From the NCBI RefSeq assembly GCF_964204645.1, contig NW_027437490.1, positions 1 through 30,000 of the forward strand: DNA of 30,000 nucleotides, given 5' to 3'. The stretch's first letter is position 1. Every line of letters starts with the position of its first letter. This DNA comes from Tubulanus polymorphus. Lineage: Eukaryota; Animalia; Nemertea. The translations under genes and the position numbers were made by a program. The notes under the pieces were generated by a model. It made no database searches, was not told where the DNA came from, and saw nothing but the letters and a program-made list of their open reading frames with translations. Of this stretch, positions 18,870-24,619 are shown piece by piece.

Positions 18870-20117
18870 TTAATACATAACACTATCTAATTGTGAATTT
18901 ATAATATTTAATTGCGCGTCAGATATAATATAAATGTGCATTTTAAAATTTTTAATTCCTTTTTTCTTTGTCATGAATAATTGTATTCCATCTTTAGTGT
19001 TTTGTAGTTTTTTTCCAGAACCATGTAATGAATTATCTTCAGTTGTTCTAAAATCTAACCATAATGCATATTTATTACCGGTATAATAGTCAATTTGATT
19101 AATGTTACAATTTTCAAATGATTTTACTTTTTCATTCATAAAATGTTTTTTAATTTCTACCCATTGATCTATCATTCTCATTCCTTGACAAAATATTTTA
19201 TTCGCTATACCTTCGATAGTTATTTCTACTTTTGTTATTTCAGGATTATAATAATTATCAACATTTATTGCACCATTAGTATACGTTCCAATGGTAAAAA
19301 ATATTAATATACCTTTAATAGATCTTCTAGGAAAGTTAATATTCTCATTTATTATTTCATCATTTGCATTAATAGTTACAGTTTTAAATTTATCAATATA
19401 ATCATATAATAATGAAAATCCTTGATTGTATTGAGTTTGAATTGTTCTAGCAATATTTTCATCAGTTACTGTATCATATTCTAAACATATATTCGATAAT
19501 TTATAACTCATATCTTTATTAACGCTAGATATTACAATTTCATTTACAGGAGCAAATGTTATCTCAAATATAACATCTTCTTGAATTGCGTATTTATATA
19601 AAGGTGCATTATTATTTATCAATTCAAAGTCTAATGGAATTTTATATTTGCTTCCATATATACTTTTTATCAATTTATCTACATCATTTGTTAATATTGC
19701 GCTATTGGCTTCAGATCTTAATTTATTTTGGTTTTCTGATTGGATGCCTTGAAATATCATATTATTTCTATTTTCTTTTGTTAACCATAAATCTTTATAA
19801 TGCATAAATAAATTATAATCATCTAATGAGAAAACTGTTTCTGGACCAATCTTTATTGTTAACTTTTTAATCAAATATCTTCCAACATTATCAACGACAT
19901 AATTATTATTATTACCGATTACTTTTATATCGGCTGATAAATAAATACTGTTTGGAACATAAAAAGTATTTTGTGTTAATCGAGGGATTCTAACGTATAA
20001 AGTTTCATCAGGATTAATATTTGAAGGGTTATGAGTAATTATATGATGTGATCTTTCTGCTTTAATAGCATTAGATATTCTAGAAATCTTAGAAGGACTT
20101 ATATAACTCCCACTCAT
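18870..20117 (-). CDS. Major capsid protein (double jelly-roll, Polinton/PLV type), 415 aa
   Basis: Size, beta-rich pattern and motifs typical of Polinton-like MCPs (NPSNINPDETLYVRIP, IKKLTIKIG, YKIPLDF, FEITFAP, YKLSNICLEYD, SIKGILIFF, YALWLDFR, HGSG, final strand MHIYIISDAQLNI). Context with penton, ATPase and pPolB supports it. Confidence 0.85.
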   Translation of the reverse strand: MSGSYISPSKISRISNAIKAERSHHIITHNPSNINPDETLYVRIPRLTQNTFYVPNSIYLSADIKVIGNNNNYVVDNVGRYLIKKLTIKIGPETVFSLDDYNLFMHYKDLWLTKENRNNMIFQGIQSENQNKLRSEANSAILTNDVDKLIKSIYGSKYKIPLDFELINNNAPLYKYAIQEDVIFEITFAPVNEIVISSVNKDMSYKLSNICLEYDTVTDENIARTIQTQYNQGFSLLYDYIDKFKTVTINANDEIINENINFPRRSIKGILIFFTIGTYTNGAINVDNYYNPEITKVEITIEGIANKIFCQGMRMIDQWVEIKKHFMNEKVKSFENCNINQIDYYTGNKYALWLDFRTTEDNSLHGSGKKLQNTKDGIQLFMTKKKGIKNFKMHIYIISDAQLNIINSQLDSVMY

Positions 20118-20137
20118 TTATTTAACAAAAAAAATTA
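20115..20137 (-). promoter_or_regulatory. Class A upstream motif of MCP: TAA-T8-GTTAAA-TAAATG
   Basis: Identical over 23 nt to 24010-24032; matches the T-run/6-bp spacer/TAAAT layout of poxvirus late promoters. Confidence 0.65.
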
Positions 20138-20138
20138 A

Positions 20139-21801
20139 TTATTTATTTTTTGATATCATGTTTACTAACCCAAAAATAATAGCACTTACAACTGTGATTA
20201 AAAATAAAATAATATGTTCAGCAGCAAAGTTAATAATGTTTCCTGCAGATTTCAATATAAAACCAACAATTGAAGCAATAACTCCTGGTAATGCTGCAGC
20301 AGATTTCTTTGATAGTTCCCATAAATATTTTGCTAATTTCTTTAAACCATCTTTAACTTTATCTTGTATAGAATTATTTCCTGGAGGTTTATCTGGTTTA
20401 TTTGGAGTAGATTTTAAAGCATTTGATATTGCTAAACCAATTGTTGTAAATAACATAGTTACAGCTGTTAGAATTGAAAGAATTGTTATTCCTTTTAATT
20501 TAAATAATAACTTTATTCTGTCTTTTAATGATATTTCAGAATTTGGTTTAATCAACAAATCTTTAAAAATAACTTTTAATCTATTAATATTATAATCATA
20601 TGATTTTAATAATAATTTAATTTCTTCTTTTTTGTAATTCTATGTTATATTCTAAATCATCTTTTTCTTTTTCTAAACGTACTTCTTTTTGCCTATATTC
20701 TATTTCATCAATTACTTGATGATCTAAATCAGACTTTAATTGTTCTATTTCTTTATTTTTATCAGTTAATTCTTTTTCTAAAGTTCTAATTTTAAAATCT
20801 CTTATACTTTTATCATGCGCAATTTTATCAGCTGATTCTTGCGTACCTTTAATTTCTCTACGTGTTTGTTCAGGAAATGCTTCTAATTCATCATCAGTTA
20901 AATCAAATAATCCTTTTTCTAGTAAATATTGCAGTCGATTTATTCCAGTACTATTCATTTCTTCTTCTGAATCTCTTAATCTATCAATTTGTTTTTCTAA
21001 TTGTAATTGATTTGAATCATTATCAATTTGTTGAGTGTCTCTTCTAGATGTTTCGGGTGATGAAGATCTTAATCTATCTAATCGATTTCTATTCTCTTCC
21101 ATTTCTGGATCAAAATCAGTAGGATTTGGATTTTTAAATGGTGAATATTTGTTTATATCAATATTCGGAATTGGTTCTTCTTCATTTACTCTATCGAGTG
21201 CATTCCATATAATTCTGAGAAATTCTCTACCACCTTTTGAACTTTCAATTGTAGATCTTGCTCGCATTCCAGGTTCAAAAATATTTTCTTGACCCATTCT
21301 AGATAATTGAATTGATACAGTATTCCTATTTAATTCAAGATTATAATACCATGAATCATTTTTAAATTCTAAATTATTCGTGAAATATGGGTCATCTTTA
21401 AAAATTTGTTCTACAATATCTTCAGTATCAATTTCATCTATTACAACTTTTGGTAATAATTCGTTAATAATTGTATCTGTTACTCTAGATTTCATTTTAT
21501 ATAATTCCATAGGTTTATCAGGATATTTTTCTTGTTGTTCTACTAATAGTTTCATAAATTCTTTTCTTTCTGTTCTAGTTGAAATTCTACCACTTTCAGG
21601 AGCTTTTAAATATTTATTTAATTTTTCACGTAATTCGGGATCATCATCATAATCATCATCTTCACCTAAATTAGTATTATATGCTGATTCATCATCATTA
21701 TCAATATTAGCGCCTGCATCATTATAATCATCATCAATATATCCTTCATTATCATTTCCCATTTCTCCCATTTCATAATCTTCTCCACCTTCTACATCCA
21801 T
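20139..21801 (-). pseudogene. Single ~553-aa membrane protein (acidic N-terminus, coiled coil, hydrophobic C-terminus) split by a +1 frameshift into the 394-aa and 139-aa ORFs
   Basis: Removing one base from the T6 run at 20628-20633 gives a continuous frame ...YNIELQKEEIKLLLKSYDYNINRLKVIFKDLLIKPNSEISLKDRIKLLFKLKGITILSILTAV... The 139-aa piece starts at TTG and lacks the TAAATG context found at true starts. Confidence 0.85.
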
Positions 21802-21820
21802 TTACATAATAAAAAAATTA
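21799..21820 (-). promoter_or_regulatory. Class A motif: TAA-T7-ATTATG-TAAATG
   Basis: Read directly upstream of the ATG at 21801. Confidence 0.6.
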
Positions 21821-24037: not shown

Positions 24038-24259
24038 TTATATGGGAGGAATATATTTTTGTTTTTCCAAATAATCAATTGTTAAATTAGATAAAGTAAC
24101 TGCTAACGTTAACTTTAAAATATCATTTATATCAAATCTATCAACATTAACACTTCCCATTTTAAATACTTTTTTTAATACCATTGAATAACCAACCGTT
24201 CCAACTGATAGTAATGCGCCATTATATAATCCAGTTATTATCCATTTATTATCACTCAT
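24038..24259 (-). CDS. 73-aa small hydrophobic protein
   Basis: Two moderately hydrophobic segments; carries the conserved upstream motif and TAAATG start; fills the gene-dense array. Confidence 0.75.
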   Translation of the reverse strand: MSDNKWIITGLYNGALLSVGTVGYSMVLKKVFKMGSVNVDRFDINDILKLTLAVTLSNLTIDYLEKQKYIPPI

Positions 24260-24277
24260 TTATTTATCAAAAAATTA
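24257..24277 (-). promoter_or_regulatory. Class A motif: TAA-T6-GATAAA-TAAATG
   Basis: Read upstream of the ATG at 24259; lies ~45 bp from the upstream stop, so it is anchored to the ATG rather than the stop. Confidence 0.6.
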
Positions 24278-24323
24278 CTATCATCAAAATATTTAGTTAA
24301 CTTATTTATGATTAATTCAACAT

Positions 24324-24599
24324 TTATTTCATTACTACTTTTATGATTATCATATATTTTGGATAATATGTTTTTAATATCTTCAATAATTCCATCTTCA
24401 TTAATTCATAATATTCTAAAGGTGATTTAATTAAATCAATTACTTTTTCTATATTATACTTTTCTTTATCAATCATTGATGCATTGTTAAATGATTTACT
24501 TTTTATATCAGTAATTACATCATTTAGTTTAATTCTCATTTCTTTACCATGTTTAAAATCAAACCCAAAACATATACTCGGTCCAACAGTTATATTCAT
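24324..24599 (-). CDS. 91-aa hypothetical protein
   Basis: Co-oriented ORF with the conserved T-run/TAAATG upstream motif; no recognisable domain. Confidence 0.65.
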   Translation of the reverse strand: MNITVGPSICFGFDFKHGKEMRIKLNDVITDIKSKSFNNASMIDKEKYNIEKVIDLIKSPLEYYELMKMELLKILKTYYPKYMIIIKVVMK

Positions 24600-24619
24600 T
24601 TATATAGTGAAAAAAATTA
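24597..24619 (-). promoter_or_regulatory. Class A motif: TAA-T7-CACTATA-TAAATG
   Basis: Read directly upstream of the ATG at 24599. Confidence 0.6.

Follow-up and report, generated by a model that had tools for sequence, protein, structure and literature searches.

Promoters that match those of a helper virus are established for mavirus, Sputnik and Gezel-14T (PgVV) (bioRxiv 2022.07.28.501842, 2025.10.09.676808), and endogenous mavirus-like elements (EMALEs) have clade-specific promoters, by which they are described as following different helpers (bioRxiv 2025.10.09.676808). A link to poxviruses has been described for the Polinton-like viruses (PLVs) AHEV_PLV1, AHEV_PLV2, CBEV_PLV1 and Ca_PLV1 by their presence in occlusion bodies (Barth et al. 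2024, PMC11296320). The sequence analyzed here, termed the window, is a 30,000 nt stretch of Tubulanus polymorphus DNA (contig NW_027437490.1, positions 1–30,000). It contains part of an element that is a Polinton-like virus, with a double jelly-roll capsid, a protein-primed B-family DNA polymerase (pPolB), an A32 ATPase and, in relatives, an integrase. The genes of this element are preceded by a motif ending in TAAATG, which is a conserved, start-anchored gene-start signal confined to one clade.

A conserved gene-start signal

The initial annotation described seven consecutive genes that are each preceded by TAA-T(5-8)-N(6-8)-TAAATG. All seven motifs are present and are on the minus strand, where they start at positions 24619, 24277, 24032, 23589, 23138, 21820 and 20137. 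Each begins 18–20 nt ahead of the ATG, and there are no occurrences on the plus strand. The motif of the capsid gene (TAATTTTTTTTGTTAAATAAATG) spans positions 20115–20137, and the others span 21799–21820, 23117–23138, 23568–23589, 24010–24032, 24257–24277 and 24597–24619. In three of the seven the leading TAA doubles as the stop codon of the preceding gene, i.e., of the 433-aa gene (21820), the 144-aa gene (23138) and the 252-aa gene (24619). The motif at 24257–24277 is anchored to the ATG, since it is 47 nt past the preceding stop codon. Compared with the seven motifs observed, 500 dinucleotide shuffles of the element give a mean of 0.016 and a maximum of 1. The counts of the initial annotation for the starts and gaps are also confirmed: TAAATG is present at 10 of 11 intact starts, with TAAAATG at pPolB, and 9 of 10 intergenic gaps are 16–32 bp, the remaining one being 64 bp.

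The window has a second class of starts, missed earlier, where an A-run (AATAAAAA-like) replaces the T-run. It is found at the genes for the 321-, 252- and 113-aa proteins and at pPolB. TAAATG occurs 32 times on the minus strand, 10 times at open reading frame (ORF) starts and 22 times internally, and an upstream T-run is present at 7/10 of the starts vs. 0/22 of the internal sites. The background of TAAATG is 39 of 520 other ATGs (7.5%), and the binomial P for its presence at 10/10 genes with homologs is 5.6e-12.

A capsid profile search retrieved 21 metagenome loci (L001–L021). Two near-duplicates (L002 and L013) were removed, as were ORFs judged to be fragments or shadows (16 in the all-locus count, 10 in the orientation test). 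The start motif is conserved in homologous elements. In the window and 14 loci, TAAATG is present at 64 of the 70 starts, and 67 of the 70 have TAAAT within positions -12 to +2. Of these starts, 88% have a T at -12 and 74% have one at -13 (49 of the 64 TAAATG starts have T at -13), 92% have a T at -3, and 49/70 have a G directly after the ATG. The loci of the clade span 20–44% GC, and the enrichment of TAAATG persists at 36–44% GC (L006, 3/3 starts; L007, 3/4; L008, 3/4).

The TAAATG loci group together in a quick maximum-likelihood tree of 52 capsids (SH-aLRT 93), and loci L015, L016 and L018 form a separate group (SH-aLRT 92). Fragments (L017, L019, L020 and L021) were excluded from the tree, and for L017 and L019 membership of the clade is based on capsid identity alone. 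The sister clade, counted with L020, has the same gene set and shows TAAATG at 0/17 starts. Within 20 nt of the ATG it has a TATA word instead, which is found at 10/13 starts in L018 (background 3.4%, P 5e-13). This word resembles the late initiator TATA of African swine fever virus and one half, [AG]TA[TG]A, of the late motif of mimivirus. An ORF of L018 (positions 5082–5576) has a weak match to the poxvirus late transcription factor VLTF3 (E 3.6e-5, 24 bits with a cut-off of 25) and has no homolog among the ORFs of L001–L021. Among other pPolB loci, TAAATG is present at 21/300 starts in 36 loci, seven of these starts being from a single locus, L149; without L149 it is present at 14/293 starts in 35 loci.

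Gene orientation was used to separate gene starts from gene ends. Head-to-head starts that are 19–72 bp apart have TAAATG at 13 of 14, the remaining one being TAAATATG, and all 14 have T at -12. Tail-to-tail ends show TAAATG at 0/8 and a T-run at 2/8. The T-run ends 8–11 nt ahead of the ATG, whether the preceding stop codon is 3 or 325 nt away. The orientation counts and this constant distance assign the motif to the gene start.

Readings of the start signal

In late promoters of vaccinia virus, TAAATG overlaps the start codon and a T is conserved 10 bases ahead of TAAAT, i.e., at -13 (PMC11980589). Intermediate promoters have TAAA with an A-rich upstream region, and the A32 ATPase gene is of this type (PMC11980589). 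Initiation takes place inside the AAA, and a poly(A) leader is then added by slippage (PMC6211774). A fish poxvirus retains TAAAT(G) (PMC4542343). The T-run class of the window fits the published vaccinia late promoters, which agrees with the late layout proposed in the initial annotation, and the A-run class fits the intermediate layout. Within the clade, ATPase starts are of the A-class in 3/4 with one unclassed, and capsid starts are of the T-class in 9/12.

The preferred reading is that the start signals would be promoters read by the late and intermediate machinery of a co-infecting poxvirus-type cytoplasmic DNA virus, to which we assign a probability of about 0.5. There is no Pfam match to an RNA polymerase among 14 ORFs of the window, where the element is partial, or among 44 ORFs of the loci scanned. 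Together with the promoter layout, this argues for a helper-read code of poxvirus type as the best reading. By analogy with vaccinia, transcription would start inside the AAA of TAAATG, and a 5' poly(A) leader made by polymerase slippage would immediately precede the AUG. Genes with a T-run, i.e., those for the capsid and the small hydrophobic proteins, would be late, and those with an A-run (the ATPase, pPolB, the likely penton and the zinc-finger protein) would be intermediate. In intact family members the provirus would stay silent, with expression and packaging upon helper infection, and an antiviral benefit to the host from the family is possible. The resting, inducible antiviral defence that was suggested initially is not supported for the window copy, which is broken.

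The usual eukaryotic start context has a purine at -3. The T found at this position in the clade is contrary to that norm, which is what one would see if this T were left out of the transcript.

Several points weigh against the poxvirus-type reading. Each of its mechanistic steps is deduced from sequence. The T peak of the clade is at -12, one base off the -13 of vaccinia, and the comparison is with a published description and not with a matrix. The match between class and function is loose, as the capsid-like D13 of vaccinia is intermediate and not late, and the start class differs among homologs in 7 of 17 gene families that have at least two counted starts. In head-to-head gene pairs a T-run is an A-run on the opposite strand, and the two classes could arise by that alone. 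The SH-aLRT value of 93 for the TAAATG clade is under the 95 mark of the tool and comes from a quick tree only. Poxviruses are described from vertebrates and insects (PMC4542343), and the sole named eukaryote among the capsid relatives is a bivalve, at 39% identity and outside the TAAATG clade. The deoxynucleoside kinase (dNK) of L003 has 22 matches, with no named poxvirus relative among them. This gene (L003 positions 10343–10981, in a close relative of the window element) has a TAAATG start, and a dNK domain is also recorded for a more distant pPolB, P0174.

Other points of this kind concern how specific the motif is. TAAAT is shared by ranavirus polymerase promoters (PMC5294985), and yeast linear plasmids use TAAAN with slippage (PMC6211774). 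Locus L149 belongs to a different Maverick-type lineage and has TAAATG at 7/7 starts; it possibly represents an independent adoption of the same start signal. The pPolB of L149 is only 35% identical, and its integrase has, by eye, a protease-like N-terminus. In three Mavericks with PF21738 capsids, 34/43 ATGs have TAAA no more than 9 nt away. Counted by locus, TAAA within 9 nt of the ATG is found at 11/16 starts in L146, 10/13 in L148, 13/14 in L154 and 8/9 in L160, often as TAAAA(A)ATG. Gene-proximal initiators may be general in Polintons. With TAAA-type starts in ordinary Mavericks as well as in yeast plasmids, the motif does not single out poxviruses. A multi-copy family, described below, also fits helper-free nuclear spread.

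In another reading, with host RNA polymerase II (Pol II), the element would be transcribed in the nucleus, possibly with small factors of its own, and TAAATG would be an element-specific initiator or a translation context. TAAATG places an in-frame stop codon directly ahead of the ATG in a compact AT-rich genome, and nuclear helper-free PLVs exist (TsV). The family is multi-copy and diverged in the host species and has relatives with an rve-chromo integrase, and the TAAA found near the ATG in ordinary Mavericks fits here too. However, some head-to-head ATGs are only 19–30 bp apart, too close for two ordinary core promoters with leaders. Ordinary Pol II core promoters with leaders need more spacing than this. 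The frequent T at -3 would also be a poor translation context by the norm given above. For a T at this position and for head-to-head gaps this short, a near-leaderless start fits better than host Pol II. In addition, a wholesale switch between TAAATG and TATA in sister clades would be unexpected from one conserved host polymerase. On balance, transcription by Pol II is considered unlikely.

Helper-read promoters with a helper that is not a poxvirus are judged improbable as well. In this case the promoters would be read from a TAAA(T) slippage initiator, either by a different nucleocytovirus lineage or by a plasmid-type polymerase of the cytoplasm. Precedents for such an initiator are found in yeast linear plasmids, which have TAAAN and 5' poly(A) leaders (PMC6211774), and in ranavirus promoters, which have TAAAT (PMC5294985). 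Egoviruses are the closest poxvirus relatives, and their paper makes no mention of promoters. On the other hand, it is for poxviruses that precisely this combination, TAAATG at the start codon and a T core about 10 nt ahead of it, has been described (PMC11980589), and the layout is retained in fish and insect poxviruses. A motif scan of 21 of the 64 parts of the viral-locus collection found 120 loci, 80 of them with flanks. Among these 80 long loci, which were chosen for one motif match, the highest TAAATG share is 4/9 starts, and no candidate helper dominated by TAAATG starts is present.

A role of the motif as a 3'-end signal of the preceding gene, made up of stop codon, T-run terminator and AATAAA polyadenylation signal, or as a form of stop-start coupling, is very improbable. 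The stop codons shared by three of the seven motifs would fit this role. T-runs can terminate transcription, and those of the motif frequently fit TTTTTNT. In addition, AATAAATG, which contains the polyadenylation hexamer, is found at 20/46 tandem starts. However, it is found at only 5/14 head-to-head starts, where no gene ends, and nearly all of those starts keep TAAATG. The tail-to-tail ends and the fixed position of the T-run relative to the ATG, as given above, also stand against it. The orientation test rejects a pure 3'-end signal; the motif may have an additional terminator role. Origin of the motif by chance from a 23% GC sequence, which the 22 non-start TAAATG on the coding strand might suggest, is practically negligible and is rejected on the basis of the shuffles, the conservation at 36–44% GC and the rarity of the motif in AT-rich control loci.

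Gene content and state of the window copy

The window consists of 17.3 kb of a satellite followed by a block of 20–26% GC with tightly packed minus-strand genes. The satellite (positions 1–17320) is a host tandem repeat with a 118-bp unit and 46% GC, and it adjoins the element inside the ATPase gene. The array has an inverted block at 1109–1441, which recurs about 3.3 kb downstream. The 3' part of the A32-type packaging ATPase is at 17321–17716 on the plus strand, and its 5' part is absent at the satellite junction. The junction (17315–17325) is at a short common word, ATCAAC, which suggests a microhomology junction. The ATPase fragment shows 71–81% identity to the ATPases of L001, L003 and L005, and its L003 homolog has a Pox_A32 match with an E value of 4.6e-11. 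Between the tail-to-tail ATPase and 321-aa genes there are short degenerate repeats of the ATACC type (17720–17820).

All other genes described here are on the minus strand. The 321-aa protein (17872–18837) has a weak zinc-finger match and a TAAATG start of the A-run class, and this class is present at 3/3 homologous starts counted for the gene, the window copy included. The major capsid protein (18870–20117) is 415 aa and is a double jelly-roll protein by its structure model and by Atlas capsid clusters. The model has a pLDDT of 83.9, and its best structural matches are iridovirus and PBCV-1 capsids (E about 1e-17). There is also a weak Capsid_N match. None of the window ORFs matches the Maverick capsid profile PF21738 at E 0.1; L146, L148 and L154 match it at 1e-41 or below. 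No relatives of the window capsid or ATPase were found in the viral contig collection, and none of the capsid in the genome contig collection. Relatives of the capsid (P0046 cluster) and of pPolB (P0171) are listed as Bartonella and Sulfurimonas, in records that are short or unplaced, and are probably eukaryotic contamination.

The next gene (20139–21801) encodes an acidic, coiled-coil protein. It was initially taken as a gene of 553 aa, but in the window copy the reading is split over two frames with a break near 20.63 kb, i.e., there is a 394-aa ORF and a C-terminal piece. The conserved 433-aa protein (21818–23119) has a hydrophobic C-terminus and homologs in L003, L008 and L018. It has no Pfam or Atlas match, and its model, with a pLDDT of 38, is unusable. 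A 144-aa protein with a hydrophobic segment (23136–23570) has 78% identity to the L003 homolog. A conserved 140-aa protein in which both ends are hydrophobic (23590–24012) and a small hydrophobic conserved protein of 73 aa (24038–24259) have homologs in relatives. The 91-aa ORF (24324–24599) matches its 126-aa counterpart in L003 only in the first 23 aa.

The 252-aa protein (24617–25375) and the 113-aa protein (25393–25734) both have a TAAATG start of the A-run class. The former has a profile match to a Maverick gene of L146 with a probability of 94% and is likely a minor capsid (penton) protein, a label that is putative. pPolB (25763–29789) is present as three ORFs of 592, 336 and 276 aa, with breaks near 28.0 and 26.7 kb and the A-run start TAAAATG. 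It matches PF03175 with an E value of 1.3e-10 and has relatives of 1,319–1,365 aa at 81–83% identity. An rve-chromo integrase is present in L001 and L003; there is none in the window, which covers part of the element. The left end of the element is lost at the satellite, and the right end is past the window edge.

The window copy is thus broken: the satellite truncates the ATPase, pPolB is spread over three ORFs and the gene of 553 aa lies in two frames. Reads labelled as this species, 1,934 million letters in all, cover the element several hundred-fold, a depth taken without a single-copy control and from which no copy number was derived, and show more than 1,300 variant places across the covered stretch. 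The deep coverage and the number of variant places therefore indicate a diverged multi-copy family. Read joints (29812–29823, 25393 and 18854) tie the region ahead of pPolB both to where the 113-aa gene ends and to where the 321-aa gene starts. Other copies may have a different gene order, with joints at A-class start signals.

Significance and comparison with known systems

Whether Polintons in eukaryotic genomes rely on large DNA viruses has yet to be settled, and their joint presence in occlusion bodies is the sole link to poxviruses to date. Helper dependence becomes testable with a 30-bp start signal that corresponds to a well-characterized promoter. More tentative than the promoter reading itself is a wider proposal, in which a widespread endogenous PLV clade would use both classes of the poxvirus post-replicative promoter code in full, with an asfarvirus- or mimivirus-like TATA code in its sister clade. 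If this is true, the promoters would record a helper switch, the elements would be genome-resident poxvirus virophages, and there would be undiscovered poxvirus relatives in hosts that have no known ones. Reading promoters across PLV clades could also predict the type of helper and where unknown poxvirus relatives are located. In the literature searched, no TAAATG start code is reported for Polintons or PLVs; most subscription papers are outside the coverage of that search.

The yeast cytoplasmic linear plasmids pGKL are also pPolB elements. They are similar to the window element in having a poxvirus-like TAAAN initiator and poly(A) leaders made by slippage, but they have their own RNA polymerase and an upstream conserved sequence (UCS), whereas the window element has a capsid and no polymerase match (PMC6211774). 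Compared with vaccinia late and intermediate promoters (PMC11980589, PMC5294985), the start signal has the same TAAATG over the start with either a T-rich core about 10 nt upstream or an A-rich upstream region. The G at +4, common in vaccinia, is also frequent in the clade, as noted. The setting differs in that this is an element of roughly the 17-kb class without its own RNA polymerase, in which nearly all genes have TAAATG and none is of the early type.

Among PLVs, those associated with entomopoxviruses are likewise small, encode a capsid and are proposed to be poxvirus parasites, and one is integrated in a beetle genome (PMC11296320). Their capsids, which belong to the AHEV_PLV1/CBEV_PLV1 or the AHEV_PLV2/Ca_PLV1 lineage, are 366–372 aa vs. 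415 aa here and show no evident likeness by eye, unaligned. They are without an rve integrase and have a protease, which was not found in the window element. The available part of that paper makes no mention of a promoter, TAAAT or a motif for the poxvirus-associated PLVs, and the available parts of two PLV surveys from 2026 make no mention of promoters or motifs. Animal PLVs outside the Maverick groups (Octocorallia, Hydrozoa and Bivalvia; Polinton-3_NV and -N1A_NV type) have the same combination of pPolB, rve integrase and a non-Maverick capsid (bioRxiv 2026.06.19.733378; PMC11296320), and the window element appears to belong with these.

Mavirus and the EMALEs, Sputnik and Gezel-14T are similar to the present elements in that they are small integrating DNA viruses which carry the promoter motif of a helper, with a motif that differs by clade. 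They differ in having helpers of the mimivirus family in protists and other motifs, and in that their dependence is proven by experiment, while here the motif is poxvirus-like and known from sequence alone. The start signal would be a case of virophage-like promoter mimicry with a poxvirus-type layout in a clade of Polinton-like viruses.

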